Virus record (IMG/VR): IMGVR_UViG_3300031555_002005
Length of the DNA: 64,000 nt
Strand: one strand, 5' to 3'
Source: a virus
Lineage: Duplodnaviria; Heunggongvirae; Uroviricota; Caudoviricetes
In this document: positions 19,727 to 55,964 of the stretch, piece by piece
Position numbering within the stretch: the first letter of the stretch is position 1
How the letters are laid out: the number at the start of each line of letters is the position of its first letter
Made by a program: the position numbers and the translations under genes
The notes under the pieces: generated by a model
What the model was told of the DNA's origin: nothing
The model's input: only the letters and a program-made list of their open reading frames with translations
The model's database searches: none

Positions 19727-20254
19727 ATGAACCTAACAAAAGTAAGTAAATATATTAGTTTAATTTTGCGCCATAAGCCAGAAACAATTGGCATCAGCCT
19801 TGATGAGCATGGCTGGGCCAATGTAAAGGATCTTATTGATGGCGTAAATAAAACTCACAAGCTAGATATGAAAATGCTTGAAGAGATTGTAGCAACAGAT
19901 GATAAGCAGCGCTATTCTTTCAATGAAGATAAGACTATGATTCGTGCCAATCAGGGGCATTCTATTGATGTAGACGTGGAACTTGAAGAAGCTGTGCCTC
20001 CTGAGATGCTTTGGCATGGAACTGGTGTTAAATACATGAAGAGCATTGATACAGAGGGGCTTATTCCTAAGTCCAGATTGTATGTGCATTTGTCTACTGA
20101 TCCTAATACGGCAATGGAGGTCGGTAAGAGACATGGTGCACCTATGATTTACTGCATTGATGCGCTAAGAATGCATGAAGATGGATATAAGTTTTACAAA
20201 TCCAAGAACGGTGTGTGGTTAACTAAACATGTGCCTGCGGAGTATTTTAGGTAA
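19727..20254 (+). CDS. kptA: RNA 2'-phosphotransferase Tpt1/KptA
   Basis: Near full-length collinearity with KptA as I recall it: LRHKPE..GI.LD..GWA, FNED..IRANQGHS, WHGT, YVHLS, NGVWLT. Confidence 0.9.
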   Translation: MNLTKVSKYISLILRHKPETIGISLDEHGWANVKDLIDGVNKTHKLDMKMLEEIVATDDKQRYSFNEDKTMIRANQGHSIDVDVELEEAVPPEMLWHGTGVKYMKSIDTEGLIPKSRLYVHLSTDPNTAMEVGKRHGAPMIYCIDALRMHEDGYKFYKSKNGVWLTKHVPAEYFR

Positions 20255-33704: not shown

Positions 33705-33707
33705 TAT

Positions 33708-33792: not shown

Positions 33793-33796
33793 AATC

Positions 33797-33900
33797 CCAA
33801 AGCTGACAGAGCGCAGGGGTGAACTTGATGATCCCGTCAGCAGGGCCCGAGCTAAGCCGGGAAGGAAAGCGGCGCTTTTCGGTGAAGTGCGACGCCAAGG
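33797..33900 (+). ncRNA. GC-rich structured RNA candidate
   Basis: helices gctgac/gtcagc, cccg/cggg, ggcg/cgcc in a locally GC-rich, ORF-free stretch. Confidence 0.3.
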
Positions 33901-33957
33901 ATATATCTGGAGAACTGTGTTCTCAATTTAAGGGTTATATCAAACCGAATTAAATAT

Positions 33958-34049
33958 CCAGCAATGGCGAAAATGGTAAACGCAGTCCGCAGTAGGATTG
34001 CCTGATAGCGCAGTCGGGCATGATAGTTCAAGTCTATCTTGCTGGGCCA
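33958..34049 (+). ncRNA. non-canonical tRNA-like RNA
   Basis: acceptor ccagcaa/ttgctgg+G+CCA, D arm gcg-N11-cgc, T arm gatag-ttcaagt-ctatc; middle is 7-bp hairpin tgcctga/tcgggca with 8-nt loop; direct repeat cgcagtc. Confidence 0.45.
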
Positions 34050-34474: not shown

Positions 34475-34502
34475 TTGACAAAATGGTAAAATGTGTTATA
34501 AT
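34475..34502 (+). promoter_or_regulatory. sigma70-type promoter
   Basis: TTGACA-N16-TATAAT; box starts 2 nt after -10. Confidence 0.8.
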
Positions 34503-34503
34503 A

Positions 34504-34520
34504 ACAATACAAATTTAATG
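34504..34520 (+). promoter_or_regulatory. ACAATACAAAATTAAT box copy (variant)
   Basis: acaatacaaatttaatg. Confidence 0.55.
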
Positions 34521-34535
34521 AAGGGAGTATACATA

Positions 34536-40123: not shown

Positions 40124-41509
40124 ATGGCTTATACAGCATTTATTACAAGAATTAAGAATCTGCGTACACACCCTAAGGCGGATCGACTGCAGATGGGTGA
40201 GTGCTTTGGTAACACTGTAATTGTCTCTCTGGAATACGAGGACAACCAGCTTGGCATTTACTTCCCTTCTGATGGACAGATTAGCACTGCATTTGCAGAA
40301 GCAAATAACCTGCTTCGCAAGAAGGATGAAAACGGCAATAACATTGGCGGTTACATGGATCCCGACAAGCGCAACGTCACTGCTATTAAGCTTCGTGGAG
40401 AAAAGTCTGATGGCCTGTTCCTGCCTCTGAAGTCTCTTGAGCCTTTTGGTGACATTACCACTCTGCGTGAGGGTGACCGAATTGATAACTTTAATGGACA
40501 TGAGATTTGCTGCAAGTATGTACCTTTTAAGCGTGAACGTACTGCCGCAGGTGGAGCAGGAAAGCGCATTAAGCGTAGAGCTAAGAGAAGCATTGCACCT
40601 CTGTTTTATGAGCATATGGACACTGAGCAGCTCGCCTACAATCTGGCAGCTTTTAAGCCCGGTGACGAGATTGAAATCACTCTAAAGATGCATGGCACTT
40701 CTCAGCGAACTGCACACCTACCTGTGTTTAAGGACTACAAGCGCACAATCTGGGACAAACTATTCCGTCGTGAAGGTACTCCTGTTTATGATTGGGGTTA
40801 CGTCTCTGGCACTCGTCGTACTGTTCTAGAGAATTTTGAAGGTGGATATTATGGATCTAACGAGTTCCGTGAAGCACATTCTAAGTTCTTTGAGGGCAAG
40901 CTGTGGAAGGGCGAAGAGGTCTACTACGAGGTGGTTGGTTTCACTCATACTGGCGCACCTATTATGTCTACGGCAGACAATAAGAAGCTGAACGACAAGG
41001 AGTTTGTTAAGCAGTATGGAAAGACTACTACTTTCTCTTATGGTTGTGCCCCTGATGGTGTAAATTCCGCAGATGGAGTTATTCCTCAGTCTGATATCTA
41101 CGTTTACCGTATGACAATGACCAATGAAGATGGTGATGTTGTCGAGTACACTCCTGATTTCATGCGCTATCGTTGTGAGCAGATGGGTGTTAAGACTGTC
41201 CCTGTGATGTGGAAGGGCACTATTCCTTACGCAGATTGGCTTGAAGCTAACACGTGGGAAAGCGCAGGGCATTATGCAATTACTCGTGCAGAAAAGTACT
41301 ATGATGGTCCCGACCCTATTGGCAAGACTCATGTCCGTGAAGGCGTTGTAGTTCGTATTCTGAACCGTCCTAAATTCTGTGCATACAAGCATAAGAACTG
41401 GTCTTTCAAGGCTCTTGAAGGAATTGTTAAGGTTGAAGCTGAGGCTCCTGATATGGAAGAAGCCGATGGCATTAATGAGGAAGTGATGACTGATGAATTT
41501 TCACAGTGA
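40124..41509 (+). CDS. ATP-dependent RNA ligase (Rnl2/Rnl5-like, N-terminal OB-like module)
   Basis: Motif I LKMHGTS (KxHG as in T4 Rnl2/DraRnl per memory); N-terminal ~150 aa extra domain. Confidence 0.7.
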   Translation: MAYTAFITRIKNLRTHPKADRLQMGECFGNTVIVSLEYEDNQLGIYFPSDGQISTAFAEANNLLRKKDENGNNIGGYMDPDKRNVTAIKLRGEKSDGLFLPLKSLEPFGDITTLREGDRIDNFNGHEICCKYVPFKRERTAAGGAGKRIKRRAKRSIAPLFYEHMDTEQLAYNLAAFKPGDEIEITLKMHGTSQRTAHLPVFKDYKRTIWDKLFRREGTPVYDWGYVSGTRRTVLENFEGGYYGSNEFREAHSKFFEGKLWKGEEVYYEVVGFTHTGAPIMSTADNKKLNDKEFVKQYGKTTTFSYGCAPDGVNSADGVIPQSDIYVYRMTMTNEDGDVVEYTPDFMRYRCEQMGVKTVPVMWKGTIPYADWLEANTWESAGHYAITRAEKYYDGPDPIGKTHVREGVVVRILNRPKFCAYKHKNWSFKALEGIVKVEAEAPDMEEADGINEEVMTDEFSQ

Positions 41510-42302
41510 TGAATGGATCATGCGGAATGTTCGAGAGCACTACAACGAGGCTCTCGAACACTTCCCCGAAGATAGAATTGTAGGTATCTTTTATCAGGGC
41601 AGCGGTAACTACGGCCTTGACTATGAAGGTTCTGATGTAGACACCAAGCTGATTGTCACGCCAACCTTTGAAGATATTGCAATGAATAAAAAGGCAGTAA
41701 GTACAACTCATATCAGAGAGAATGAAGAGCACATCGATTTTAAGGATATTAGACTCTATATCCAGACTTTCAGAAAGCAAAACTTGAACTTCCTAGAAAT
41801 CCTGTTTACTAAATATGCAATTATCAATCCTATGTATAAAGATGAATGGGATAGACTTGTAAAGGCTCGTGAGAAAATTGCACGCTATGCACCTGTACAG
41901 GCTATTAAGTCTATGAAGGGCATTGCAAAAGAAAAGTATCATGCAATGGAACATCACTATCCTGCACGAATGGCATGGATTGAGAAGTTTTCTTACGATC
42001 CGAAACAACTGCATCATCTACTGAGAGTTAATGAATATATCAGCAGATACATTGACGGCGAATCATATGAAGATTGCTTGATTTCAAAAATGCCAGACTA
42101 TTTACAGTCAGTAAAACTTGGTTTTCACAACCTGGATGATGCTCGCATGATTGCTAATTGGGCTATTGGCTGTATTGATAAAATGTGCGATAAGTATCTA
42201 GAGACTTGTTCAACTGAAGTTGATAAAGATGTTGATGTTCTACTTGATGATGTGCAGTACAACATTATGAAGATTGCTATTAAGAAAGAAATTGGTGATT
42301 AA
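41493..42302 (+). CDS. Pol-beta superfamily nucleotidyltransferase (RNA-ligase-associated type)
   Basis: GSGNYGLDYEGSDVD (GS..DxD NTase signature); overlaps ligase gene end. Confidence 0.7.
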   Translation: MNFHSDEWIMRNVREHYNEALEHFPEDRIVGIFYQGSGNYGLDYEGSDVDTKLIVTPTFEDIAMNKKAVSTTHIRENEEHIDFKDIRLYIQTFRKQNLNFLEILFTKYAIINPMYKDEWDRLVKAREKIARYAPVQAIKSMKGIAKEKYHAMEHHYPARMAWIEKFSYDPKQLHHLLRVNEYISRYIDGESYEDCLISKMPDYLQSVKLGFHNLDDARMIANWAIGCIDKMCDKYLETCSTEVDKDVDVLLDDVQYNIMKIAIKKEIGD

Positions 42303-42303
42303 A

Positions 42304-43200
42304 ATGAACAGACCTAGTTTAATTTTACTTGTCGGAATTCCCGGCTCAGGCAAAACTACATACGCAGAAAAATATATTAAAGAGAATCCCAATACAGTAC
42401 ATCTTTCCTCCGACAAGATTCGTGAAGAACTTTGGGGTAATGAAGCTACTCAGGGCGACAACAACAAAGTGTTTTCTCTGATGCAGTCTAGAGCAATTGA
42501 AGCACTGAATAACGGACAGTCTGTGGTATATGACGCTACGAACATTACAAGAAAAGACAGATCTTACATTATCACTCTTTGCCCTAAGTTTGCTAAGATT
42601 GAGTGCCATATTATTTGGGCACCTATTGAGACTTGCATCGAGAGAGACGCTGCCAGAGAACGCACTGTTGGCAAGGAAGTCATTGATAGAATGCTTAAGC
42701 GATTCCAGGCACCTTATTATGATGAAGGGTTTGATGGTATCTATATTCGTTATTCTGATGACAATTTTAATGCAAAAGAATACAGTAAAAAGATAGTTAT
42801 GAACATGGATATCCCTCATGATAACCCTCATCACACTTTGAATATTTTAGATCATTGTGCTGAAGCAGGATCATATTTTTATGAAAGAGGTCAGTATGAC
42901 GAAGTGTGGGTGGCAGCTATGTATCATGACATAGGAAAACCATACGTAAAAGCATTTGTTGATAGCAAAGGTAATCCTTGTGAGAATGCTCATTACTACC
43001 AGCATCAATGTTTGGGTTCATATATGTATTATGGAATGACTAGTGAAATTGGTGGTACTAGTGACACATGGGTAAAAATTGCTTGGCTGATTTCCACACA
43101 TATGGATCCTTATCTAAATACGAAATATTACAATAGACTTCCTGCTTATCTAAAGAAACAGGTAGATTTGCTTCACGAGGCGGACAGGAATGCACATTAA
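42304..43200 (+). CDS. polynucleotide kinase (P-loop) fused to HD phosphohydrolase (Pnkp-like)
   Basis: Start ATG 42304; GIPGSGKTT; C-terminal MYHDIGKP ... HMDP. Confidence 0.75.
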   Translation: MNRPSLILLVGIPGSGKTTYAEKYIKENPNTVHLSSDKIREELWGNEATQGDNNKVFSLMQSRAIEALNNGQSVVYDATNITRKDRSYIITLCPKFAKIECHIIWAPIETCIERDAARERTVGKEVIDRMLKRFQAPYYDEGFDGIYIRYSDDNFNAKEYSKKIVMNMDIPHDNPHHTLNILDHCAEAGSYFYERGQYDEVWVAAMYHDIGKPYVKAFVDSKGNPCENAHYYQHQCLGSYMYYGMTSEIGGTSDTWVKIAWLISTHMDPYLNTKYYNRLPAYLKKQVDLLHEADRNAH

Positions 43201-43225
43201 GTAATTAAAAATAAAAGATGCATAG

Positions 43226-43242
43226 ACGATACAAAATTAATG
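43226..43242 (+). promoter_or_regulatory. ACAATACAAAATTAAT box copy (variant)
   Basis: acgatacaaaattaatg upstream of LAGLIDADG gene. Confidence 0.5.
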
Positions 43243-43260
43243 TAAAATTGGAGTGGTTCT

Positions 43261-44049
43261 ATGCCAAATAAAATTGATAAAAAAACAGAAAAAGATATAA
43301 TTGATTTATATAATAATGGATACGGGACTATGGAAATATCACAAAAATGTGAAATTCATAGAGCAACTGTTCAAAGAATTTTAAAAAGAAATAATATAGA
43401 TTTACGTAAACGTACACCTGTACATTATGACATTCATTTCTTTGACGAATACAATGAAAATAGTTGTTATTGGGCAGGGTTTATTGCAGCAGATGGATAT
43501 GTGAGATCCGACAGAGCAGCTGTAACAATACATTTAGCAAGTGTAGATTATGAGCATTTGTTAAAACTTGCCAAATTAACCAATTATGAAGGGAACGTCA
43601 AACTCAATAAGAATGATTGTTATATTACATTTGCTGGCAAATGGTTTCAAGATGCTCTAGATAAAAATTTTAATATACGTCCAAATAAAACATTTGATAT
43701 TACAATTCCAGACAAAATTCCAGAAGATATGGTTAAACATTTTATTCGTGGTTACTTTGATGGCGATGGTAGTGTAACTCATACAAACAATTATTTACGC
43801 ATTAATTTCACTTCTGGATCTGAAACTATGCTTCAACAGATTATGAATTTTGTATATAACAATAATATATTAGTTCGAAATAATACTGGAATGCCACCAA
43901 TCCATCAATATGTAATTAACTATTCTTGTAGTGTTGCATATAAAATTCTAGACATATTATATGGATGTTCATCAGACTTAACAAGACTGGATAGAAAATA
44001 TCAATTATATTTAAGTTATAAAAAATCTAAAAGTCCATTGGCAAATTAA
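43261..44049 (+). CDS. LAGLIDADG homing endonuclease with N-terminal HTH
   Basis: GFIAADGYV and GYFDGDGSV motifs; free-standing between Pnkp-like and Thg1-like genes. Confidence 0.85.
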   Translation: MPNKIDKKTEKDIIDLYNNGYGTMEISQKCEIHRATVQRILKRNNIDLRKRTPVHYDIHFFDEYNENSCYWAGFIAADGYVRSDRAAVTIHLASVDYEHLLKLAKLTNYEGNVKLNKNDCYITFAGKWFQDALDKNFNIRPNKTFDITIPDKIPEDMVKHFIRGYFDGDGSVTHTNNYLRINFTSGSETMLQQIMNFVYNNNILVRNNTGMPPIHQYVINYSCSVAYKILDILYGCSSDLTRLDRKYQLYLSYKKSKSPLAN

Positions 44050-44069
44050 TTTGATTGGAGAATAATATT

Positions 44070-44903
44070 ATGGATACAAGTGAACTAGCAAAAAGAATGA
44101 AAGACTATGAGTCTGTGCCAAAAGCAAGGCTGATGAGGCGTTGTCCCGTGGCATGTCGTATTGACGGAAAGGCTCACCATAGCTTTACAAAAGGATTCAA
44201 AAGACCGTTTGACGAAGTTTATATTAAGTCGATGCAGAAAACAGCAAAATATTTATGTGAAAATGTACAAGGTGTTGTGCTGTCATATCAGCAGTCAGAT
44301 GAAATTACTTTGATTTTAATTGACTATAAAGAATTCAACACATCTCCATATTTTGACTACGAAATTCAAAAGCTGTGTTCAATTCTAGCTTCTATGGCAA
44401 CTATGGCGTTCAATAAGTTTTTTGCAAACGAATGTTGTCAGTGGTTTGAAAATAACATTGATTGGAGTGACCTAGACGTTGTCGCAGCAGATGAAGATAT
44501 CAAGAAGTTGTTTAATGCCTATACCAAGGCTTGTGAAAAAGGTGCAATGTTCGATGCTAGAGTATTTAATATCCCTAAGGAAGAAGTCATGAACCTTCTA
44601 TATTGGAGACAGTTAGATGCTACTAGAAACAGCATTCAAATGGTTGGGCAGGCAAACTTCTCTCATAATCAGCTTCACGGTAAGAACTGTAGCGATATTC
44701 AGGATATGTTAATGTTCGAAAAGGGCATCAACTGGAACGATTATCCGACTCACCTAAAGCGTGGCAGCTGTTGTATTAAGAAACCTTTCAAGATTAATGA
44801 GGGCACCGAGCAGGAAACAGTTCGTAACAAATGGGTAATTGACACTGAGATACCTATTTTCACGCAAGATAAAGATTATGTAAATAAATTGATTTTTATT
44901 TAA
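44070..44903 (+). CDS. tRNA-His guanylyltransferase-like protein (Thg1/TLP, 3'-5' polymerase)
   Basis: ACRIDGKAHHSFTKGFKRPFDE, SYQQSDEITL; start ATG 44070 (track 44055 TTG). Confidence 0.85.
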   Translation: MDTSELAKRMKDYESVPKARLMRRCPVACRIDGKAHHSFTKGFKRPFDEVYIKSMQKTAKYLCENVQGVVLSYQQSDEITLILIDYKEFNTSPYFDYEIQKLCSILASMATMAFNKFFANECCQWFENNIDWSDLDVVAADEDIKKLFNAYTKACEKGAMFDARVFNIPKEEVMNLLYWRQLDATRNSIQMVGQANFSHNQLHGKNCSDIQDMLMFEKGINWNDYPTHLKRGSCCIKKPFKINEGTEQETVRNKWVIDTEIPIFTQDKDYVNKLIFI

Positions 44904-44986: not shown

Positions 44987-45595
44987 GTGGGTAAATATCA
45001 GAAAAAAGTAAATCGCTTTTCTCAAATTCAAAAAGTAGTGATTTACGTAATCATTTTTGCTATTGTGATTATGACTCCCGTTGTAAGTCAACGAGTCAAG
45101 TACGAAAAGCAAATTGCAGAAATTAATGCCAATCACGAAGAAGAGATGGTTGCTCTTCGTGCAGAATTACAGAGTGATTACGAATCCAAAGTCTCTGAAC
45201 TTGAACAATACTATGAATATGGTGGAGATGTTTCTCAGATCGAACGAGAAGCAGAATACATCGCAAAGGTTATTTATGGCACTGCTCGCAATCATGTGGA
45301 TTCCGATAAGAAAGCTGTTGTGTGGTGTATCTTAAATCGAGTTGAACATTATGCCCACCCTGACACTATTGCAGAAGTTTGTGAACAGCCTAAACAGTGG
45401 ATGGGCTACTCTAGTGACAATCCAGTTTTAACTGAGAATTATGATTTAGCTCTAGCTGAATTAAAGACCTGGTATAACGATGGTCATCGCCCTATGAGTA
45501 GTGACTACATCTATTTATCTTGGTCTTCCAAGGAAATTCTGTTGCGAGATACTTTTGAAGAAAACAAGAACACCCATTATTGGCGTATGAGATAA
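44987..45595 (+). CDS. membrane-anchored cell-wall hydrolase (SleB/CwlJ Hydrolase_2-like)
   Basis: N-terminal TM; AKVIYGTARN...VVWCILNRVEH...QPKQW. Confidence 0.7.
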   Translation: MGKYQKKVNRFSQIQKVVIYVIIFAIVIMTPVVSQRVKYEKQIAEINANHEEEMVALRAELQSDYESKVSELEQYYEYGGDVSQIEREAEYIAKVIYGTARNHVDSDKKAVVWCILNRVEHYAHPDTIAEVCEQPKQWMGYSSDNPVLTENYDLALAELKTWYNDGHRPMSSDYIYLSWSSKEILLRDTFEENKNTHYWRMR

Positions 45596-45607
45596 AGGAG
45601 ACTTTAA

Positions 45608-46156
45608 ATGAAGAGTTCAAAGATTGTATTAATTACTATTGCAATTATTATTGCAACTATTCTACTGGGTGTATTTGCATTCCAGGGTGTGCAGAATAAA
45701 GCAATTTCCCTAGAGGAGCAGATTTACACTGCATACTCTGACATTGATGTTCAGCAGAAGCGCAGAGCAGACCTTATTCCCAATCTGGTAGACTGCGTTA
45801 AAGCATATGACAAGCATGAATATCAGACTCTGATGGACGTTGTGAGCGCAAGAGGCACTGATTCTGACCAGTCTGTAGCAGAAATCCAGACTATGATTCA
45901 GGCGGTTGCAGAAGCGTATCCTGACCTGAAGAGCAATGAGAACTATAAGGAGCTTATGAATGAGCTTGCAACCACAGAGAATCTAATTGCAAACTACCGT
46001 AGCAACTATAATAAATGGATCAAGAGCTATAATCAGTATGTTCGCAAGTTCCCTAACAAGCAGATTCTAAGTATGCTTGGCTATGAAGCAGTTGCCTATA
46101 CTTATTTGGACTATAATACGTCTGCCGATGCCCCTACTAATTTGTTTGGTGATTAA
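45608..46156 (+). CDS. lemA: LemA family membrane protein
   Basis: N-terminal TM; QQKRRADLIPNLV...YNxxVRKFPN. Confidence 0.8.
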   Translation: MKSSKIVLITIAIIIATILLGVFAFQGVQNKAISLEEQIYTAYSDIDVQQKRRADLIPNLVDCVKAYDKHEYQTLMDVVSARGTDSDQSVAEIQTMIQAVAEAYPDLKSNENYKELMNELATTENLIANYRSNYNKWIKSYNQYVRKFPNKQILSMLGYEAVAYTYLDYNTSADAPTNLFGD

Positions 46157-46158
46157 TA

Positions 46159-46911
46159 ATGAAAGTTACAAAACGAGAAGTTCTGTTTAGCATTGTTATT
46201 GTTTGTGCCATGCTCATCATTGGTATTGTTATTGCTGGCAATATCAATGATGCAGTTATGGAAAAGCAGCAAGAATATATTACTGCATTGCAAATTAATA
46301 ATGATAAAGACCTATTTGAATATGGTATGAGAACGAACGTTGGTAATGCATTTGTATATGGTGAGCTAAAAGCTGTTGACACCGTGACGTTCGATGAAAT
46401 TGGTGGAGAATATTCATATGTTGAAAAAGTCAAAGAGAGATACACAAGACACACCAGAACCGTAACAAAAACTAGAACTGTTAATGGCAAGACTCAAACA
46501 TATACTGAAACAGAAGTGTATTGGACCTGGGATGAAGTAGATAGTTGGGATAAACATTCTGAGAAAATTACATTTTTAGACGTTGAGTTTGATTATGGTA
46601 AAATTAATTTTCCCAGTGAACGTCATATTGACACACAAGATGGCGGATATCATATTAGATATGTATACTATGGTGCACCAACATACAGCATTGGTACAAT
46701 TTATACAAATTTAAAAGATGATACAATTTCTAACTATACCACTATGTATCATAACTGCACAATTGAAGAAACTCTTGAGATTAAAACAAACGATTTTGGA
46801 ATTATATTCTTTTGGATTTGTTGGGTTTTCCTAACTGGCGTAGTTGTTTATGGATTCTATTATATCGACAATAGGTGGCTCGAAGACAACTATAGAAGAA
46901 GATATTATTAA
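46159..46911 (+). CDS. membrane protein (LemA partner position)
   Basis: TM helices at both ends; ATAATG coupling to lemA. Confidence 0.7.
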   Translation: MKVTKREVLFSIVIVCAMLIIGIVIAGNINDAVMEKQQEYITALQINNDKDLFEYGMRTNVGNAFVYGELKAVDTVTFDEIGGEYSYVEKVKERYTRHTRTVTKTRTVNGKTQTYTETEVYWTWDEVDSWDKHSEKITFLDVEFDYGKINFPSERHIDTQDGGYHIRYVYYGAPTYSIGTIYTNLKDDTISNYTTMYHNCTIEETLEIKTNDFGIIFFWICWVFLTGVVVYGFYYIDNRWLEDNYRRRYY

Positions 46912-46917
46912 TTTATA

Positions 46918-46948
46918 CGGGTCACGGCAAAACTGTGGCCCGTTTTTT
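46918..46948 (+). terminator. rho-independent terminator
   Basis: cgggtcac-N9-gtggcccg then TTTTTT. Confidence 0.85.
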
Positions 46949-46964: not shown

Positions 46965-46993
46965 TTGACAATACAAAATTAATGTGGTATAAT
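46965..46993 (+). promoter_or_regulatory. sigma70-type promoter with box as -35/spacer
   Basis: TTGACAatacaaaattaatgtggTATAAT. Confidence 0.85.
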
Positions 46994-47021
46994 AGCGATG
47001 CTAGAAAGGAGTTGGAATTAT

Positions 47022-48749
47022 TTGAAATATAAACTAATAGGAAGCAATGATACAAATAATATAATTAAAACAATATTAAACAACAGAGGAATAGAAGACT
47101 GGAATGGGTACATTAACCTTAGTAAAGCTCCACGAGACACATATGATAACTTGGATAATATTGCAAAAGCTGTTTTTGCGTTTGATTTGCACTATGTACA
47201 GAAACATCCAATTGCAATTCTTGTGGACAATGACGTTGATGGTGTTTGTAGTAGTACATTAATGTACAGGTTTATTAAGACACTTGATCCAGATTACGAT
47301 GTTAGAATGTATGTTCACAGAAAAAATAAGAGTCATGGACTAGATGGAGACTTCGACATTGACAGTGATATTAAGTTGTTAATTGTGCCAGATGCAGGAT
47401 CCAACGATGTTGCAGAGCATAAAAGACTGTATTACGAGCTTGGAATTGATTGTTTGTGTTTAGACCATCACCAAGTAACTGTTGATACAAGCAAGAGCCC
47501 AGCGATCATTGTTAACAATCAAACAAGTGATAGATATGAAAACAAAGGATGCTGTGGCGCATCAGTGACACTAGAATTCTGCAGAGCACTAGAAGAATTT
47601 TATTGGGAAGACGTATGCGACGATCTGTTAGACCTTGCCGCTGTGGCAAATGTATGTGACATTATGCCAATCACTGAATTTGAAACTAGAGCAGTAATTA
47701 ATGAGGGCTTGTCTAATATAAACAACAAGATGCTACAAGAAATCATTAAAGCTCAAGACTTCTCCATGAAAGGTATTGTGAGTCCACATACAGTAGGTTT
47801 TTATGTTGGCCCTCTAATCAATGCTTTTATTCGCATGGCAACTTTTGAAGAGCGTCAACTACTTGTTCGAGCATTTTGCGAAGATGAGTCTGAAACTTTT
47901 TCGTACACAAAACGTGGAGAATCACTACCAACTGAAGAGAACATTTATGAACATGTTGTTCGACTAATGAAGTCATATAAGGGCAAACAAGACCGACAGA
48001 GACAAAATACTTTACCTACGCTTGTAAACAAGGGTAAAGAGTGTGATGGTAACGTTGCACTTATTGATGCCACTGGCATTATTGACACATCTCTAACAGG
48101 AGTTGTGGCAATCAAGGTTTCAGAATCTTTAAACAAGCCAACATTACTTTTACAACAAAGAAATGACAAAGTGTATGGAGGAAGTGGCAGAGTATTTGAT
48201 AACTGTCCAATAGAAGACTTCAGAGCACTTGTTGATGAATGTCCTTACACCACCTTGGCACAAGGGCACCCAGGTGCATTCGGAATTGAGATTCCAGTTG
48301 AGAATATAGGACTTGCAAGAGATTGGCTTAACGAGCGGCTTGCGAATGTTGATATGGATAAAGTCTACAACGTTGACTTCGAAATCAACGCAGAAAATCT
48401 TTCTATTCCAATGTTCCAAGCGCTTGACCAAAACAAAACACTTTGGGGACATAACGTTAACGAACCTTTGTTCGCAATTAATAATCTACACATATCTTCT
48501 GAGAACTCTAGAATCTGTGGCAAAAGTCAAAATACAATTCAGATTTATGATGAAGTAGCAAACGTAAAGTATGTTATGTTCTTCTGCAATGGAGCAGAGG
48601 AACTGTATCAATGGATTAGTAATAACTGGGGAGATGATAAAGCAGTTATTACTGTTATTGGTACACTTGGATTGAGCTTGTATGAAGGTAAGCTAGATAG
48701 TCAAGTTATTATTAAGGATGCAAGAATAGAAAAAACAATACAAAATTAA
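47022..48749 (+). CDS. RecJ-like DHH-family ssDNA exonuclease
   Basis: DNDVDGVCS, VPDAGSND, LDHHQV (DHH); start likely TTG 47022 (RBS AAAGGAG) because track ATG 46998 lies at the predicted TSS. Confidence 0.8.
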   Translation: MKYKLIGSNDTNNIIKTILNNRGIEDWNGYINLSKAPRDTYDNLDNIAKAVFAFDLHYVQKHPIAILVDNDVDGVCSSTLMYRFIKTLDPDYDVRMYVHRKNKSHGLDGDFDIDSDIKLLIVPDAGSNDVAEHKRLYYELGIDCLCLDHHQVTVDTSKSPAIIVNNQTSDRYENKGCCGASVTLEFCRALEEFYWEDVCDDLLDLAAVANVCDIMPITEFETRAVINEGLSNINNKMLQEIIKAQDFSMKGIVSPHTVGFYVGPLINAFIRMATFEERQLLVRAFCEDESETFSYTKRGESLPTEENIYEHVVRLMKSYKGKQDRQRQNTLPTLVNKGKECDGNVALIDATGIIDTSLTGVVAIKVSESLNKPTLLLQQRNDKVYGGSGRVFDNCPIEDFRALVDECPYTTLAQGHPGAFGIEIPVENIGLARDWLNERLANVDMDKVYNVDFEINAENLSIPMFQALDQNKTLWGHNVNEPLFAINNLHISSENSRICGKSQNTIQIYDEVANVKYVMFFCNGAEELYQWISNNWGDDKAVITVIGTLGLSLYEGKLDSQVIIKDARIEKTIQN

Positions 48750-48767: not shown

Positions 48768-49937
48768 ATGATTCATTCTTATCAGAAACCTTTGAGTGGC
48801 AAAAGTGTTGGTGTAGTATTTGGCTCTTTTGCCCCTCTACACCAAGGTCATCTGGACTGCATTATGAGGGCAAAGAAAGAAAATGATGGCGGCGCAATTG
48901 TAATCGTTTGCGGATTCGACGGTGACAAGGGTGGTAAAATGATGCCACTAAAGCGAAGATACAGATATGTTAGAGAGTTCTTCTCTGATGATGATTTGGT
49001 TGCTGTATATGCAATTGATGACGGTGAGATTGGCGCAGAGCCTTATCCTAATGGTTGGGAAAAGTGGCTCGACGAGTTTTGGAATATTTGGGAAAAGGCC
49101 ACTGAGCTATCTTGGAAAGAAACAGATGGTCCAGAAGGTTTTGAAACTAGTGTTAGTTTGGAACGTCCTAAGCGCCACTGGTATGCAGGTGACCCTAATT
49201 ATGTGAGTGACCTCGTTGAACGTGGCGAAGAAGCAACTCTGCTTGACCGTGTAGCAGACAATCCTATTTGTGCAACAATGATTCGTCAGAATCCTATTAA
49301 GCACTGGGATAAAATTACTTTCCCCTTCCGTCGTCTGTTTAGCCACAACATTCTAATTTGTGGCACAGCATCTGAAGGTAAATCAACTCTTACAACGGAT
49401 CTTGGTAAGTATTTCAATGCGCCTTATAGCTATGAATGGGCACGTGACTATATGAGAGAAAGTTGCGTTATTGACTGGGAACTAGATGGCGCAGATTATA
49501 TGGCTTTCCTTGAAGGCCAGTACAACCTAAACAAGCAGATGATTAATTCTCCTGGCAATCATGGCATTTTCTTTGCTGATTCTGACTCTATGGTAACTAG
49601 AATGTATGCAGAGTATTATGCTCAGGATGAAACTTGTGCGCTTACTCAAGAAGAATTTGAACGAGTAGCAGTAATGGCCGATGAAATTACACGTAAATCT
49701 CGTTGGGACAAGATCTTCTTACTGGCACCGCATGGTGTATTTGTTGACGACCATGAAAGATATATGGCTCATTCTGGCATGAAGGAACGGCAAGAGCTAT
49801 TTGAAATCCTATGCAGAAACATTAAGGAATCTGGAAACTGGGACAAGGTTACAATTCTAACTGGAAACTATTACGAAAATTTCATGGCAATTGTAAGTTA
49901 TGTAAAAGATCGAATTGAGAAAGGCATGGCTGATTAA
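48768..49937 (+). CDS. nadR: NadR-type bifunctional NMN adenylyltransferase / ribosylnicotinamide kinase
   Basis: GVVFGSFAPLHQGHLDCIMRA (HxGH) plus P-loop CGTASEGKST. Confidence 0.85.
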   Translation: MIHSYQKPLSGKSVGVVFGSFAPLHQGHLDCIMRAKKENDGGAIVIVCGFDGDKGGKMMPLKRRYRYVREFFSDDDLVAVYAIDDGEIGAEPYPNGWEKWLDEFWNIWEKATELSWKETDGPEGFETSVSLERPKRHWYAGDPNYVSDLVERGEEATLLDRVADNPICATMIRQNPIKHWDKITFPFRRLFSHNILICGTASEGKSTLTTDLGKYFNAPYSYEWARDYMRESCVIDWELDGADYMAFLEGQYNLNKQMINSPGNHGIFFADSDSMVTRMYAEYYAQDETCALTQEEFERVAVMADEITRKSRWDKIFLLAPHGVFVDDHERYMAHSGMKERQELFEILCRNIKESGNWDKVTILTGNYYENFMAIVSYVKDRIEKGMAD

Positions 49938-50429
49938 ATGGCTAAAATGTATTTAATGTGCGGTTGCAGTGGCGCAGGAAAGACAACATTTGCAAAAGAG
50001 TTTGCCAAGAAAAATAGCCTTAAGTATTTAGGTATTGATGATTTCTACGCACTAGTCAATGGTGATGAATGTATACACACTAATTCATTTGAAGTGTGGA
50101 TTGAATTTTATAAAGCAATTCATGAAGCAGAGATTAATAATCTTGACGTAGTTATTGATACAAATGCAATTACTCGTTCTCATCGTGAACAGTTTATTGA
50201 TTGGTTTCCAACTTTTGAACATCATCTAATTTACATTAAAGCTACACATGACCTAAGAAAGCAGAACAATAAATCTCGTCGCAGACAAGTTCCAGACGAT
50301 GTAATGGATAAAATGCGTGACCAATTTCAAATACCTTTGTTGAGTGAAAAGTTTAAAACAATCACAATAATTAGAAACGTTGATAATAATTTTAGAGTAC
50401 CTATTGTATTAAAAGGAGAAGCAAAATGA
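49938..50429 (+). CDS. P-loop kinase/ATPase (AAA_33-like)
   Basis: GCSGAGKTTFA Walker A. Confidence 0.6.
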   Translation: MAKMYLMCGCSGAGKTTFAKEFAKKNSLKYLGIDDFYALVNGDECIHTNSFEVWIEFYKAIHEAEINNLDVVIDTNAITRSHREQFIDWFPTFEHHLIYIKATHDLRKQNNKSRRRQVPDDVMDKMRDQFQIPLLSEKFKTITIIRNVDNNFRVPIVLKGEAK

Positions 50430-51118
50430 AGAATTGGGTATTGAAGAATTTTTGGAATGGATACACTCTTTTCGAGAAGCTGTTTATGCTAGTAGCAGTA
50501 GCAATGCAGGTGATTGTCTTTATGATTACACCTGATAGTTGGCTAAATATCGTAGCTGGCCTTGCTGGTGTAGTGTCTGTTATTATGTGCGCCAAGGGTA
50601 GAACCATGTTCTATTTTATTGGCTTTATTCAGACGGTAACGTATCTGGTTCTTGCATGGCAGAATAGATTTTATGGCGAAGTGCTTGAAAACATTTTCTA
50701 CTTTGTAACTATGATTTTGGGCATTTTTGAGTGGAAGAAGAATGAAGTCACCAATGCTGACGGTACTGAGGATGTTATTGCCAAGAAGTTCAGTCCCACT
50801 CAGTGGATTCTGTCTATTGCTGGCACTGTAATTGCAACGATGGCTATGGGTTACTGGTTAGACGGTATTGGTAGCGCACAGGCATATACAGATGCAGCTA
50901 CTAATGTTATGGCTATCTTTGCTCAGCTTTTAATGGTTTGGAGATTCCGTGAGCAGTGGATTTGGTGGATCGTAATTGATCTGTTCTGCATCAAGATGTG
51001 GTTCGTTGCAGGTAATTGGTCCATGGTTGCAATGTACATTGTTTGGACTGTAAATGCAATTTATGGTTGGATTAATTGGAGTAAGTTGAACAAGATTCAG
51101 AGCGTTAAGGAGGCTTAA
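50426..51118 (+). CDS. pnuC: PnuC nicotinamide riboside transporter
   Basis: 7 predicted TM helices, W/F-rich pattern typical of PnuC; adjacent to nadR. Confidence 0.75.
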   Translation: MKNWVLKNFWNGYTLFEKLFMLVAVAMQVIVFMITPDSWLNIVAGLAGVVSVIMCAKGRTMFYFIGFIQTVTYLVLAWQNRFYGEVLENIFYFVTMILGIFEWKKNEVTNADGTEDVIAKKFSPTQWILSIAGTVIATMAMGYWLDGIGSAQAYTDAATNVMAIFAQLLMVWRFREQWIWWIVIDLFCIKMWFVAGNWSMVAMYIVWTVNAIYGWINWSKLNKIQSVKEA

Positions 51119-51120: not shown

Positions 51121-51567
51121 ATGACACTAGAAAAGCTACAGTCTGAAATGGTTCAGGCTATGAAGGACAAAGATAAACTACGCAAGTCCGTACTTTCTGG
51201 ACTTGTGGACGCAGTAAAGAAAGCATCTATGACCAATAATGGTCGTATTGAAATTACAGAGCAGCTTGTTGATGAAGTTCTGTTAAAGTATAAGAAAATG
51301 GTTCAAGAACAGATTGACACTTGTCCTGCAAAGCGCATTGAAACTCTTGAAGAGTATAAGGCGCAGATGGCAGTTGTTACCGAATTTGCACCTACTCTGA
51401 TCACTGATGAAACTGAGATTCATTATCTCATTCTTGACATTGTTAATAATGAACATGAATTCTCAAAATCAAATAGAGGCGTTCTTATGAAGATTCTTGC
51501 TCCTGTACTGAAGGGTAAGGCAGATATGAGTATTGTTAATAAGGTACTTGGAGGAATGTTGCAGTGA
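51121..51567 (+). CDS. GatB/YqeY-domain protein
   Basis: N-terminus LQSEMVQAMKDKDKLRKSVL typical of YqeY. Confidence 0.75.
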   Translation: MTLEKLQSEMVQAMKDKDKLRKSVLSGLVDAVKKASMTNNGRIEITEQLVDEVLLKYKKMVQEQIDTCPAKRIETLEEYKAQMAVVTEFAPTLITDETEIHYLILDIVNNEHEFSKSNRGVLMKILAPVLKGKADMSIVNKVLGGMLQ

Positions 51568-53617: not shown

Positions 53618-55573
53618 GTGAATAAAATTGATAGAATTAAAGAACTCGTAGAGCTGCTAAATCATTATCGAAATGAATATTATAACAACTCTCGCAGTGA
53701 AATCTCAGATTTTGAATATGACCAGTTATTTGACGAACTTGTTAGTCTAGAATCAGAAACTGGTTTTATTATGGCAGTGTCACCAACACAAACAGTTGGT
53801 TATGAGGTTAAGTCAGAACTGAAAAAAGTGAAACATAATCATCCTATGTTGTCACTTGATAAAACCAAAAGCGTAGATGATGTACTTTCATTCCTTGATG
53901 GAAAAGATGGCGCAATTATGGCCAAGATGGATGGGCTGACATGTTCGCTACGATATTTGAATGGAGAGCTTGTTTCTGCTGAAACGAGAGGCAATGGTGA
54001 GGTCGGAGAGGATATTTTGCACTGTGCAAAAACTATTAAAAATATTCCTCTTAAAATTAATTGCACAGAAGAAATCATTATTGATGGCGAAGTGATTATT
54101 ACATATGATGACTTTGAAAAAATCAATTCCACATTACCAGACGATCAAAAATACAAACATCCACGAAACCTTGCGTCAGGATCTATTAGACAGCTTGATA
54201 GCAATATTGCCGCACAAAGAAACATGAAGTTCATTGCGTGGAAAGTTATTAAAGGTTGTAGTAATAATTCTTTTATACGTAGGTTGATGTTTGCAAGTGG
54301 ACTTGGGTTTAGCACTACTCCACTAATTCCACTGCCGACGATTTTTCAAAATAAAGAGCAGATTCAAATTGCGATTGAACAAATTAAGATTTGGTCTAAA
54401 GAAGAAGGATATCCTATTGACGGATGTGTGTTTGGATATGACGATGTAGCTTATGGTAAATCACTTGGTGCAACAGGACACCATCTGCGTAGCCAACTTG
54501 CTTTTAAGTTTTATGATGAGTTATATCCTACAAGATTACAATATATTGATTGGACAATTGGTAAGTCTTCTCAGCTAACACCAACAGCAGTATTTGATAC
54601 TGTAGAAATTGATGGAGCCGATGTGTCACGTGCATCACTACATAATATCAGTATTATTAAAAATCTTGGACTGACTAATGGTTGTACTGTAAATGTATTT
54701 AAGGCCAATCAAATTATCCCACAGATTGACTCTTGTGAAAATGATGGCAGTGGTGATATTGAAATCCCTATGACTTGCCCGATTTGTGGAGGAGCAACTG
54801 CTATTAAAAGAGATAATGAATCTGAGGTGCTAATCTGTACAAATTCTGAGTGTGCGGGCAAGAAGCTTGCGCAGTTTACTCACTTTGTTTCTAAGAAAGG
54901 TATGGATATTAAAAATTTATCTGAGGCAACACTTCAAGATTTGATCTCACATGGATTTATCCACAACTTCAAAGACATTTACCATCTTGCTGACCATAAA
55001 CAGCAACTTATTCGTCTAGATGGATTTGGCAAAAAATCAGTGGAAAATCTGCTAAAATCTATTGAAGATTCGAGGAATGTGAAGCTTGAGAATTTTATTG
55101 CTGCACTAGGCATTCCAAACATTGGACTATCAGCGTCTAAAACTATATCAAAACACTTCAGTGGCAGCTATAAAGAATTAATGAATACATATTTTTACTG
55201 GCGTTTTGATTGGACAGCTCTTGAAGACTTTGGAGATGTTATGGCAGAAAGTATCAATAAGTATTTGTGTAATCATTTTGAAGAAATTAATGAATTGGCC
55301 GATGAAATGAATTTTATACTTCCAGAGGAGCATAATGATAATTCTCTTGAAGGATTAAAGTTTTGCATAACTGGCAGTTTCAGTCAGCCTAGAGATGGCC
55401 TCAAGAAGCAGTTAGAGAGCCGTGGAGCCAAGTTTATCAGCTCCGTGAGCAAGAATCTGGACATTCTTTTCGCAGGAGAGAAGGCTGGCAGCAAGCTTAC
55501 AAAGGCACAACAGCTTGGTGTTAGAGTTGCAAATGAAGAAGAATTAATGAAGATGCTTGGAGAACATATATGA
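53618..55573 (+). CDS. ligA: NAD-dependent DNA ligase
   Basis: adenylation KMDGLT, Zn finger CPICGG..CTNSEC, HhH and C-terminal BRCT-like. Confidence 0.92.
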   Translation: MNKIDRIKELVELLNHYRNEYYNNSRSEISDFEYDQLFDELVSLESETGFIMAVSPTQTVGYEVKSELKKVKHNHPMLSLDKTKSVDDVLSFLDGKDGAIMAKMDGLTCSLRYLNGELVSAETRGNGEVGEDILHCAKTIKNIPLKINCTEEIIIDGEVIITYDDFEKINSTLPDDQKYKHPRNLASGSIRQLDSNIAAQRNMKFIAWKVIKGCSNNSFIRRLMFASGLGFSTTPLIPLPTIFQNKEQIQIAIEQIKIWSKEEGYPIDGCVFGYDDVAYGKSLGATGHHLRSQLAFKFYDELYPTRLQYIDWTIGKSSQLTPTAVFDTVEIDGADVSRASLHNISIIKNLGLTNGCTVNVFKANQIIPQIDSCENDGSGDIEIPMTCPICGGATAIKRDNESEVLICTNSECAGKKLAQFTHFVSKKGMDIKNLSEATLQDLISHGFIHNFKDIYHLADHKQQLIRLDGFGKKSVENLLKSIEDSRNVKLENFIAALGIPNIGLSASKTISKHFSGSYKELMNTYFYWRFDWTALEDFGDVMAESINKYLCNHFEEINELADEMNFILPEEHNDNSLEGLKFCITGSFSQPRDGLKKQLESRGAKFISSVSKNLDILFAGEKAGSKLTKAQQLGVRVANEEELMKMLGEHI

Positions 55574-55936: not shown

Positions 55937-55964
55937 TTGACAAACTAGAAATTTCTGCTATAAT
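55937..55964 (+). promoter_or_regulatory. sigma70-type promoter
   Basis: TTGACA-N16-TATAAT. Confidence 0.8.

Follow-up and report, generated by a model that had tools for sequence, protein, structure and literature searches.

The locus considered here raises the question of whether three adjacent genes at positions 48768-51118 of a 64,000-nucleotide stretch of viral DNA (IMG/VR record IMGVR_UViG_3300031555_002005, hereafter the window) provide a phage with its own route to NAD+, whether that route is new, and what is contributed by a small kinase encoded between its two recognisable salvage genes. The initial annotation had proposed an NAD+ salvage module of a NadR enzyme, a second P-loop kinase, listed without a role, and a PnuC transporter, by which nicotinamide riboside (NR) would be imported, phosphorylated and adenylylated in a third pathway distinct from the phage NAD+ reconstitution pathways NARP1 and NARP2. 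The best explanation overall, and in our view a highly probable one, is a divergent NARP3-type NR salvage module carried by a large, uncultivated phage. The NadR-PnuC core is of an already-described kind and adds little; the small kinase is the new part and the sole element of the locus that is out of the ordinary.

Organisation of the locus and its predicted transcription unit

Three closely spaced ORFs on the + strand, with exactly the annotated coordinates, make up the module. These and the other features of the window used below are:

19727..20254, + strand: Tpt1/KptA RNA 2'-phosphotransferase, a second NAD+-consuming phage enzyme (Pfam PTS_2-RNA 3e-48)
42274..43200, + strand: Pnk-like kinase and HD domain protein (Pnk-HD), a paralogue of the small kinase (32% identity) that keeps the canonical SSDxxR acceptor motif
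46917..46943, + strand: intrinsic-terminator-like hairpin at the end of the upstream unit (11 bp stem, 7 GC, T-run)
46965..46993, + strand: perfect sigma-70/sigma-A type promoter (TTGACA-17-TATAAT with TG extension), predicted start of the module's unit
46998..48749, + strand: RecJ-like DHH/OB exonuclease, opening the predicted unit (Pfam DHH 4e-14, RecJ_OB 2e-7)
48768..49937, + strand: NadR-like NMN adenylyltransferase and ribosylnicotinamide kinase, 389 aa, without HTH (profiles, PDB matches, motifs)
49938..50429, + strand: PNK-fold P-loop kinase ('K family'), 163 aa (AAA_33; D34xxY37)
50426..51118, + strand: PnuC-type (Pnu family) NR transporter, 230 aa (profiles; WxxW(x)3D at residues 178-185)
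51121..51567, + strand: YqeY-like protein in the predicted RecJ-LigA unit (Pfam YqeY 7e-18)
53618..55573, + strand: NAD-dependent DNA ligase LigA, an NAD+ consumer, in the predicted RecJ-LigA unit (NF005932; Pfam domains)
55937..55964, + strand: next perfect consensus promoter, start of the following unit

The NadR/kinase, kinase/PnuC and PnuC/YqeY junctions measure 0, -4 and 2 nt: the small-kinase frame opens immediately behind the NadR stop codon and overlaps PnuC by 4 nt. No other perfect promoter sites lie between 46965 and 55937, and the sequence predicts a transcription unit of ~9 kb that would run from the host-type promoter at 46965 through RecJ, NadR, the kinase, PnuC, YqeY, three ORFs and LigA to orf107. 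Since the module shares this predicted unit with LigA, located 2.5 kb downstream, production of NAD+ would be co-expressed with an NAD-dependent ligase. The annotation of LigA as NAD-dependent is borne out by its scores (541 bits against a cut-off of 369 for NF005932, 515 against 444 for TIGR00575), by its adenylation, OB, HhH and BRCT domains in Pfam and by a KMDG in the translation that corresponds to the KxDG motif. An Rfam gathering scan matched tRNAs alone, with neither an NAD riboswitch nor a pnuC motif, and PADLOC gave no match for NadR, the small kinase or PnuC, which places the module outside known defence systems.

The phage origin of the window can be inferred from its IMG/VR relatives, PHROG matches, homing endonucleases and tRNA array; it contains no structural genes, and the contigs related to it are as long as 160-173 kb. 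Its promoters and its DNA polymerase have a Firmicutes-like appearance. The exact NadR protein is found on six independent metagenome contigs, on which the kinase, PnuC and flanking genes, as far as each contig extends, are 97.5-100% identical to the window, and this recurrence indicates that the locus is not an assembly artefact. When 50,697 deposited phage records were searched by megablast, none matched the 2.35-kb module, which thus has no close cultured relative.

The NadR-like enzyme and the PnuC transporter

The first gene product combines, as annotated, an HxGH NMNAT motif (H25-Q-G-H28, with A169TMIR) and a kinase P-loop; the ribosylnicotinamide kinase (RNK) motifs are Walker A G199TASEGKST, F268FADSD and V326DDHER. 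Pfam assigns CTP_transf_like to residues 17-82 (27 bits, cut-off 21) and AAA_28 to residues 195-367 (62 bits, cut-off 27), and the protein matches phrog_3462 'nicotinamide-nucleotide adenylyltransferase' (3e-60). Its PDB matches are the NadR proteins of Lactococcus lactis (6GYE, 3.8e-61), Escherichia coli (8X7F, 7e-22) and Haemophilus influenzae (1LW7, 9e-19), together with Bas30_86 (9X6F, 5.6e-20). The closest solved relative, L. lactis NadR, has measured NR-to-NAD activity (PMC7221760). No HTH domain was detected, the alignment to NF005988 beginning at profile position 60. None of the transporter and kinase assignments failed profile searches, with the qualification that this protein scores under the NCBIfam equivalog cut-offs (191.3 against 341.15 for TIGR01526; 105.1 against 201 for NF005988), and we therefore class it as NadR-like by architecture rather than as an NCBI equivalog.

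The transporter matches PF04973 (2e-44), TIGR01528 (141.8 bits, cut-off 42.45) and phrog_1880 (3e-49), and aligns over its full length, residues 4-225, with Neisseria mucosa PnuC (4QTN, 5.9e-41). The PnuC assignment therefore stands, with eight transmembrane segments more likely than the seven originally proposed, since the alignment covers the additional N-terminal helix of 4QTN. Residues W178-I-W-W181-I-V-I-D185 correspond to the WxxW(x)3D/N motif in TM6 of the Pnu family, which has a conserved 7-TM core, transports by facilitated diffusion with metabolic trapping by a kinase, and in which D or N is allowed at the last position (PMC5749112). Import of another vitamin or nucleoside (thiamine, riboflavin or nicotinate riboside) in place of NR is very unlikely. 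Such a substrate would be in keeping with the Asp of the motif, shared with thiamine-type PnuT (PMC5749112) where N. mucosa PnuC and Bas30_87 have Asn, and with the absence of the Gln of PxQF, but the protein scores 100 bits above the PnuC equivalog cut-off, its best PDB match is an NR transporter, and at more than 20 loci the same D-type transporters always have a NadR or NMNAT gene as neighbour.

Relationship to NARP3 and other NAD+ pathways

The proposed route, NR import followed by phosphorylation and adenylylation, is supported in the window by domain, motif and solved-structure matches, and has been shown experimentally in T5-like homologues (PMC13464706). It is distinct in substance from NARP1 (Adps and Namat) and NARP2 (Nampt and Nmnat), which serve the same end of rebuilding NAD+ during infection by different enzymes, acting on ADP-ribose or on nicotinamide and PRPP; none of their genes was seen in the window. 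The claim to newness does not hold, since an NR-to-NAD+ route was hypothesised by Osterman et al. in 2024 (bioRxiv 10.1101/2024.02.11.579819), and NARP3 (Bas30_86/87 of T5-like phages) was named and demonstrated experimentally in Sci Adv on 12 Aug 2026, where such pairs take up NR, produce NAD+ and overcome Sir2-HerA and DSR1 (PMC13464706).

NARP3 of Escherichia phage TrudiRoth (NadR-like Bas30_86 and PnuC-like Bas30_87; 9X6H/9X6F) and the window module are both phage-encoded and co-oriented, pair an HTH-less NMNAT-RNK protein with PnuC, and are predicted to convert NR into NAD+ by way of NMN. We compared sequences using the EPS7 pair as a stand-in for Bas30_86/87, its NadR-like gene being 100% identical to Bas30_86/9X6F over the 89 residues compared; identities are 26% for NadR and 30% for PnuC (6e-26 and 2e-25). 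[quoted passage not shown] Its NadR has HxGH where Bas30_86 has TRGH, its pair sits inside a predicted RecJ-to-LigA unit, and, although the two genes are on the same strand and in the same predicted unit, the gene for a 163-aa PNK-fold kinase stands between them, whereas published NARP3 consists of two genes. The essential residues N45, Q94 and N180 of Bas30_87 align with G48, M96 and D185, and K10/F11, E230 and D275 of Bas30_86 with S20/F21, N253 and D314, alignments that are uncertain at 26-30% identity. N. mucosa PnuC likewise carries Gly at the N45 position, and the K10 position is occupied by Thr in the active L. lactis enzyme, so K10 is not family-defining.

The closest solved relatives of the pair remain L. 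lactis NadR and N. mucosa PnuC. Bacterial NadR and PnuC, including H. influenzae NadR, resemble the window pair in domain order, in their Walker A/B, lid and HxGH/SxTxxR-type motifs and in the logic of trapping; the window genes differ in being phage-borne, in an insert between the NMNAT motifs of NadR that is ~20-30 residues longer, and in the Asp of the transporter motif. PHROG classes both as 'auxiliary metabolic gene' families, and among deposited phage records 401 carry NadR and 816 carry PnuC. Nearest in sequence (37% and 42% identity) are the pairs of Prevotella Lak megaphages and gut 'NAD-jumbo phages'. As in the window, these pairs are accompanied by an NAD-dependent ligase in large gut phages; co-occurrence of NAD synthesis genes and NAD-dependent ligase was reported for gut jumbo phages in 2024 (PMC11662467). 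NadR is followed directly by PnuC in Lak megaphages, with no kinase between them; no K-family gene was detected in the Lak NadR-PnuC records, and PMC11662467 mentions no kinase. The core would present NARP3 in predicted co-transcription with an NAD-dependent ligase.

Supply of NAD+ or counter-defence

By this scheme, PnuC would let NR diffuse into the infected cell, phosphorylation would trap it as NMN, and the N-terminal NMNAT domain of NadR would adenylylate NMN to NAD+. The NAD+ so formed may remain available to LigA and Tpt1 or, by analogy with NARP3, may refill a pool drained by SIR2/TIR-type defences; for this phage, the counter-defence role is extrapolated from a system that is 26-30% identical.

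That the module mainly supplies the phage's own stoichiometric NAD+ consumers, LigA in large-genome replication and Tpt1 in tRNA/RNA repair, has close to an even chance of being correct, is compatible with counter-defence and accounts for the locus equally well. LigA lies within the predicted unit and, in the related contig L021, one small ORF after PnuC; Tpt1, present in the window, is 2 kb from the NAD cluster in contig L035; and RNA repair is fully represented in the window, by RNA ligase, a nucleotidyltransferase, Pnk-HD and Thg1. A study of gut 'NAD-jumbo phages' likewise ties phage NAD synthesis to phage NAD-dependent enzymes (PMC11662467). On the other hand, many NadR-PnuC phages have no LigA nearby, and the normal host NAD+ pool is far above the needs of ligation. 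Homologous two-gene modules, moreover, suffice against NAD-depleting defences (PMC13464706).

The small kinase represents a distinct PNK-fold subfamily

The presence of a second P-loop kinase after NadR was confirmed by a match to AAA_33 (2.5e-16; 60.7 bits, cut-off 27) and a G9CSGAGKT P-loop. Its best fold and sequence matches are the kinase domains of CthPnk, PSTK and T4 Pnk, the strongest by fold being true polynucleotide kinases, and PHROG returns 'polynucleotide kinase' (4.7e-12). K-family proteins are compact, with a fold of high confidence. A BFVD fold search found generic PNK/zeta-like proteins and nothing else, and the longer representatives (218-293 aa) contain AAA_33 alone, with no fused domain.

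K15, D34, Y37, W54, W89, R114 and R116 are common to ~75 cluster representatives of the family; the P-loop residues K15 and T16, the general base D34 and the lid arginines R114 and R116 are invariant, and Tyr37 is found in nearly all. The K family thus shares with the 5'-kinase domains of T4 and Clostridium thermocellum Pnk (1LY1, 4GP6) the P-loop Lys, the Asp general base, the lid arginines and a DTN motif (D74-T75-N76; D85-T86-N87 in T4), including the Thr that contacts the acceptor phosphate in T4. The family's Asn76, against Thr in PNK-type kinases, might suggest loss of a second acceptor-phosphate ligand, a reading rejected because the apparent difference is a one-residue register shift relative to 'DATN' kinases. 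The family differs from T4 and Cth Pnk in N41, W54 and W89, in standing alone without a phosphatase domain, in having NAD genes rather than RNA ligases as neighbours and, above all, in Tyr37: the next-nearest, PNK-type family has Arg at this position, including the window's own Pnk-HD, whose SSDxxR makes it a useful contrast. In T4 and Cth Pnk this Arg, three residues after the Asp (R38 and R41), binds the 3'-phosphate or first phosphodiester of the acceptor and is essential (PMC2831316, PMC3902929).

No K-family member was found in the 50,697 phage records, and when 185,579 species genomes were scanned by pattern a single match emerged, on a 4-kb contig of a Lachnospiraceae MAG that is probably phage DNA. 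Among 22 informative metagenomic contigs, 17 have NAD genes within 6 kb of the K gene, a sampling that is phylogenetically non-independent, and five have no nearby NAD gene; two contigs shorter than 1.1 kb were uninformative for context. The gene occurs in at least five NAD-cluster architectures, with the orders NadR-K-PnuC, K-NadR-PnuC, NMNAT-PnuC-K-PncA-NMNAT-PncB-NadE, PncB-K-PncA, NrtR-K-PncB and NadE-(His_Phos)-K. Among 12 close IMG/VR relatives of the NadR-PnuC pair (64-83% identity), however, K is absent from the locus in 10; NadR is followed directly by PnuC in 10 of the 12. We conclude that the K family is a distinct, undescribed and almost phage-restricted PNK-fold subfamily that recurs in phage NAD+ clusters, and its absence from cultured phages and near-absence from cellular genomes, set against its tracking of these clusters, makes it a useful lead.

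Candidate substrates of the small kinase

The small kinase may act as a further 5'-kinase, on NR or nicotinate riboside (NaR), trapping the nucleoside imported by the Pnu transporter, an assignment that we make tentatively, at slightly under even chance. For the family as a whole we would propose, with similar reserve, essentially phage-only PNK-fold kinases acting on a pyridine nucleoside or an NAD-related metabolite, the 5'-OH of NR or NaR being the most likely acceptor.

It is unlikely that the kinase is instead a conventional polynucleotide 5'-kinase, healing 5'-OH ends on behalf of LigA or RNA ligase and owing its position only to the accumulation of accessory genes. The resemblance to CthPnk, PSTK and T4 Pnk, the PHROG match, the 32% identity to the kinase domain of Pnk-HD, the company of RecJ and LigA in the predicted unit and the absence of K from most close NadR-PnuC relatives would all fit such an enzyme, and mammalian Pnkp, which has no counterpart of Arg38, is still a polynucleotide kinase (PMC2831316). 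However, the phage already encodes a canonical Pnk-HD adjoining its RNA ligase, and the replacement of Arg by Tyr at a residue essential in T4 and Cth Pnk is family-wide (PMC2831316, PMC3902929). Linkage to NAD genes, present in 17 of the 22 contigs, extends over unrelated gene orders and to identities as low as ~40%, and also argues against this reading, given a chance linkage by position estimated at no more than ~10% for genomes of at least 160 kb; the neighbours in NAD clusters are PncA, PncB, NadE and PnuC, not ligases.

Equally doubtful is action on the product of the pathway, whether as a P-loop NAD(H) kinase forming NADP(H) or as a kinase for another molecule derived from NAD, for example an ADP-ribose-type metabolite or an immune signal. 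NAD+, rather than NR, is common to all types of K cluster (NR salvage, Preiss-Handler and NadE-adjacent), the window's clade already has an intact RNK domain that makes K redundant, and the phage encodes ThyX, an enzyme that uses NADPH. Yet the family retains the Asp general base and the geometry of kinases that act on a 5'-OH, and in NAD+ no 5'-OH is free; the family resembles Pnk far more than AvrRxo1, and the literature searched offered no example of an NAD kinase with a PNK fold. Were the product the substrate, K would point to an unexplored layer of NAD conflict, through NADP or modification of an immune signal.

Returning to the NR/NaR 5'-kinase, its activity in the window would be either redundant with or complementary to the RNK domain of NadR. 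A related proposal, that K replaces an RNK domain that has degenerated where K is present, was rejected: in an alignment of 13 NadRs the Walker A/B and lid motifs are identical with or without K nearby, and K is therefore not making up for a dead RNK. The situation may differ in jumbo-phage clusters that combine PnuC with stand-alone NMNATs (with PncA-PncB-NadE), where K would be the sole such kinase, in place of the RNK domain of NadR. If K is a nucleoside kinase, it would complete the otherwise incomplete NR pathways of these clusters, exemplify a nucleic-acid repair kinase retooled for cofactor salvage, and suggest a minimal cassette of PnuC, kinase and NMNAT for NAD-resilient phages or NMN production; with NR or NaR as its substrate, it would constitute a non-orthologous displacement of ribosylnicotinamide kinase and extend NARP3 by a third component. 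In contigs L028, L030 and L036 there is no RNK domain, and the K gene abuts PnuC.

A probable NARP3-type module with an embedded kinase

The interval 48768-51118 comprises three plus-strand ORFs without spacing between them, which the initial annotation had assigned to NadR, a P-loop kinase and PnuC. Profile searches and matches to solved structures uphold these assignments at the same coordinates, and the neighbouring LigA, also named there, passes both LigA equivalog models and carries the full domain set.

Module genes and the ligase
48768-49937, + strand, NadR-like protein, 389 aa
49938-50429, + strand, 163-aa kinase, beginning at the base directly after the NadR-like stop codon
50426-51118, + strand, PnuC, 230 aa, overlapping the kinase ORF by 4 nt
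53618-55573, LigA

The NadR-like protein carries two domains that score above the Pfam gathering thresholds, NMN adenylyltransferase (NMNAT, cytidylyltransferase-like) at the N terminus and an AAA_28 kinase at the C terminus, and it matches phrog_3462, 'nicotinamide-nucleotide adenylyltransferase' (3e-60). Among solved structures the closest relatives are Lactococcus lactis NadR (6GYE, 3.8e-61), E. coli NadR (8X7F), Bas30_86 (9X6F, 5.6e-20) and H. influenzae NadR (1LW7), and the alignments place the motifs H25QGH28, A169TMIR, Walker A G199TASEGKST, F268FADSD and lid V326DDHER in register with the solved enzymes. Since the trifunctional NadR model aligns only from profile position 60, the HTH domain is absent, and because the score falls below the NCBIfam equivalog cut-offs we use the name NadR-like rather than NadR. 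The PnuC ORF matches PF04973 (2e-44) and TIGR01528 (141.8 bits against a cut-off of 42.45) and aligns over nearly its full length with N. mucosa PnuC (4QTN, 5.9e-41). Six metagenome contigs, independent of one another, encode exactly this NadR-like protein, and where they cover the kinase, PnuC and neighbours these are 97.5-100% identical.

The proposal that this module constitutes a third route beside NARP1 and NARP2, through import, phosphorylation and adenylylation of nicotinamide riboside (NR), holds in substance but not in novelty, as the route is that of NARP3. A two-gene cassette of a T5-like coliphage, encoding the HTH-less NadR-like Bas30_86 and the PnuC-like Bas30_87, takes up NR and turns it into NAD+, brings back NAD(H) and plating in Sir2-HerA or DSR1 cells, and has been solved crystallographically (9X6H, 9X6F; PMC13464706). 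NadR+PnuC operons were flagged as a probable further pathway in the NARP1/2 paper (bioRxiv 10.1101/2024.02.11.579819), nadR/pnuC clusters alongside NAD-dependent ligases were reported in gut jumbo phages in a 2024 Microbiome paper (PMC11662467), and in the deposited-phage collection the window NadR matches 401 records and the window PnuC 816. The NadR-like gene of Escherichia phage EPS7 is 100% identical to Bas30_86 (9X6F) over 89 comparable residues, and we therefore used the EPS7 pair as a proxy for Bas30_86/87, with which the window NadR-like protein and PnuC share 26% (E 6e-26) and 30% (E 2e-25) identity, respectively. At these identities the locus would be a remote member of the NARP3 type; the phage lineage that carries it is new. 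The nearest named relatives, the Prevotella Lak megaphages (37% identity for NadR, 42% for PnuC), differ in having PnuC immediately after NadR. The headline claim is thus already known from NARP3 and the prior bioinformatic predictions, and the sole feature of the locus that is not ordinary is the embedded PNK-fold kinase.

The window transporter differs from Bas30_87 at all three residues proven essential in the latter. It has D, not N, in the WxxW(x)3D/N motif, as does every transporter of these phage NAD clusters; the thiamine-type PnuT also has D at this position (PMC5749112). The genomic surroundings speak strongly for a pyridine nucleoside as the predicted substrate.

A distinct kinase family with linkage to NAD+ clusters

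The middle kinase is an AAA_33 protein whose best sequence matches are PSTK and the kinase domains of the T4 and C. thermocellum polynucleotide kinases, and it shares 32% identity with the kinase domain of the Pnk-HD fusion encoded elsewhere in the window (42274-43200). Its AlphaFold model, built with 60 homologues as input, is confident (pLDDT 95.4), and AvrRxo1 (12.0) and human NRK1 (10.4) are among the lower fold matches. When 1.84 billion representatives were searched with a profile, 56 clusters scored at E<1e-30, and an alignment of the best 150 matches split cleanly into two groups. The group of the middle kinase (the K family) comprises some 75 representatives, of which almost all are stand-alone and 160-190 aa long, and which have in common K15, T16, D34, Y37, N41-G-D-E, W54, R83, W89, N111, R114 and R116. 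The next group, which includes ~300-aa kinase-HD proteins like that of the window, has Arg at the Y37 position, the window Pnk-HD motif at this site being SSDKIR. In the HMMER alignment to CthPnk, D34 corresponds to the general base D38 and Y37 to R41. Structures and mutagenesis have shown that this Arg (T4 R38, Cth R41) is essential and holds the acceptor 3'-phosphate or first phosphodiester (PMC2831316, PMC3902929); the threonine of the T4 Pnk DTN motif is kept in the K family. The Arg-to-Tyr substitution is suggestive but not decisive for the acceptor, since mammalian Pnkp acts on polynucleotides although it lacks that Arg (PMC2831316).

Members of the K family were not found among 50,697 deposited phage records, where the best matches (≤31% identity) are Pnk-type genes beside RNA ligases, and the papers on phage NAD pathways that we consulted do not mention the family. 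A single match among 185,579 species genomes lies on a 4-kb MAG contig with NadE adjoining. On metagenomic contigs, NAD genes lie within 6 kb of the kinase in 17 of the 22 distinct contigs with usable flanks, and were not seen near it in the remaining five (L027, L032, L034, L037 and L040); two further contigs, with flanks that were too short, were left out of this count. For genomes of at least 160 kb with one NAD cluster each, we estimate that such proximity would arise by chance with a probability of at most ~10%. The K family is therefore distinct, nearly phage-restricted and linked to NAD+ clusters.

Gene orders around K-family kinases (K) on metagenomic contigs
NadR-K-PnuC, with small inserted ORFs in some: L008, L021, L022, L023, L041
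K-NadR-PnuC: L033, L043
NrtR-like / NMNAT / PnuC / K / PncA / NMNAT / PncB / NadE: L028, L030 (253-kb contig), L036
PncB / K / PncA / ... / NMNAT-NadE fusion, Tpt1 2 kb upstream: L035 (467 kb), L029
NrtR-like / K / PncB / PncA: L031
NadE / (His_Phos_1) / K: L025, L039

The near-complete NAD+ clusters lie on jumbo-phage contigs of 230-467 kb (L030, 3341-10304; L035, 3301-11691; L031, 1433-8426) and include NrtR-like Nudix/winged-helix regulators, PncA, PncB, NadE, stand-alone NMNATs and the NMNAT-NadE fusion, together with a Nuc_deoxyribosyltransferase-Nudix fusion, a YpsA/SLOG protein and a PRAI-like protein; several of the proteins in these clusters are not ones assigned to NAD metabolism. 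In L043, NadR (40% identity to the window NadR) is called as two ORFs of 272 and 84 aa (683-1756) beside intact K and PnuC genes, reflecting either a frameshifted or decaying gene or an assembly error.

Candidate roles of the kinase

The kinase is dispensable for the NadR-PnuC core, because PnuC directly follows NadR in 10 of 12 IMG/VR loci (NadR 64-83% identity); it lies between the two genes in one of the others and 3.5 kb upstream in the last. In the L028, L030 and L036 clusters, where K adjoins PnuC, the ribosylnicotinamide kinase (RNK) domain is absent: the 'NadR' matches cover residues 14-190 only and Pfam finds the transferase domain only. Since Pnu transporters are facilitators that rely on a trapping kinase (PMC5749112, PMC7221760), K is the obvious candidate for this role in these clusters. 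In the window clade, the RNK motifs of NadR are fully intact with or without K, so here K would either be redundant or phosphorylate something else, for instance nicotinate riboside, NAD(H) or a different molecule derived from NAD. Because what all K-containing clusters share is NAD+, not NR, a kinase acting on the product side is a live rival to trapping.

Transcriptional organisation and NAD+ consumers

Every large ORF of the window is on the plus strand. Downstream of a strong terminator (46917-46943) lies a perfect promoter (46965-46993), and the next one is at 55937, which delimits a predicted unit of RecJ, NadR, kinase, PnuC, YqeY, orf425, orf137, orf120, LigA and orf107; the NAD-dependent ligase is therefore probably expressed together with NAD+ synthesis. 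The window also encodes another NAD+ consumer, Tpt1. For the module, a putative anti-defence function and the supply of NAD+ to LigA and Tpt1 are equally economical explanations.

The window has fifteen perfect TTGACA-N16-18-TATAAT sites (for example at 8116, 35695, 46965 and 61706), all on the plus strand, against 0.15 expected by chance. Most have a TG-extended -10 element, and four have in common a nearly identical 29-nt sequence (TTGACAATnCAAAATTAATGTnnTATAAT) that looks like a repeated phage promoter cassette for the host primary sigma factor. Upstream of the NAD operon, a plus-strand block (44987-46911) encodes a Hydrolase_2 protein (SleB-like cell-wall hydrolase), LemA and a conserved 250-aa membrane-anchored protein (phrog_3886, 4.5e-74).

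The phage and its RNA-repair and tRNA genes

The window polymerase is closest to that of Clostridium phage Amboise (47.5% identity) and contigs with close kinase homologues reach 160-173 kb which, together with the fifteen perfect promoters, suggests that the phage is large and uncultivated and infects a host of Firmicutes type. Replication genes comprise a primase, DnaB-like and Dda-like helicases and a PolIII-alpha-type polymerase, in addition to ThyX. A complete RNA/tRNA repair toolkit spans 19727-21509 and 40124-44903, and its inclusion of Tpt1 suggests NAD+-consuming ligation by a route in which a 2'-phosphate is left at the junction.

RNA-repair genes
19727-20254, Tpt1/KptA
20715-21509, metallophosphoesterase
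40124-41509, RNA ligase
41493-42302, nucleotidyltransferase
42274-43200, Pnk-like kinase and HD domain fusion
44055-44903, Thg1-like 3'-5' polymerase

At least 21 tRNA genes form a plus-strand array (22698-34049). Four Rfam tRNA matches of 123-151 nt (22858-22980, 23451-23601, 28583-28712 and 28725-28852) and three ARAGORN tRNAs with two-base 'anticodons' suggest tRNAs that contain introns or are unusual in some other way. Between the tRNA genes lie HNH endonuclease ORFs (23897-24541, 25215-25700). A DUF2828/DUF7788 protein among the tRNA genes (29354-30907, +; phrog_850 'RNA-binding protein', 1e-141) and a class-V aminotransferase/cysteine-desulfurase-like protein at the downstream edge (34491-35630, +; 2.4e-63) may be linked to tRNA modification. 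At least four homing-endonuclease genes (HNH, two GIY-YIG/NUMOD3, LAGLIDADG) are dispersed across the replication/repair region, at 6341-6946, 12072-12944, 17548-18603 and 43261-44049.

A tyrosine integrase (Phage_integrase, 2.9e-32) followed by an MrpR-like core-binding-domain protein (9034-11005, +) would not be expected in a large phage of otherwise lytic appearance, and the two could be a resolvase or invertase pair. The 419-aa reverse transcriptase at 1208-2467 (+) aligns along its entire length with PADLOC RT_UG27 (683 bits, E 2.6e-206) and is a predicted 'DRT/unknown group' defence-type enzyme in a phage genome; just downstream lies a minus-strand 310-aa ORF (3528-4460) with no family match.
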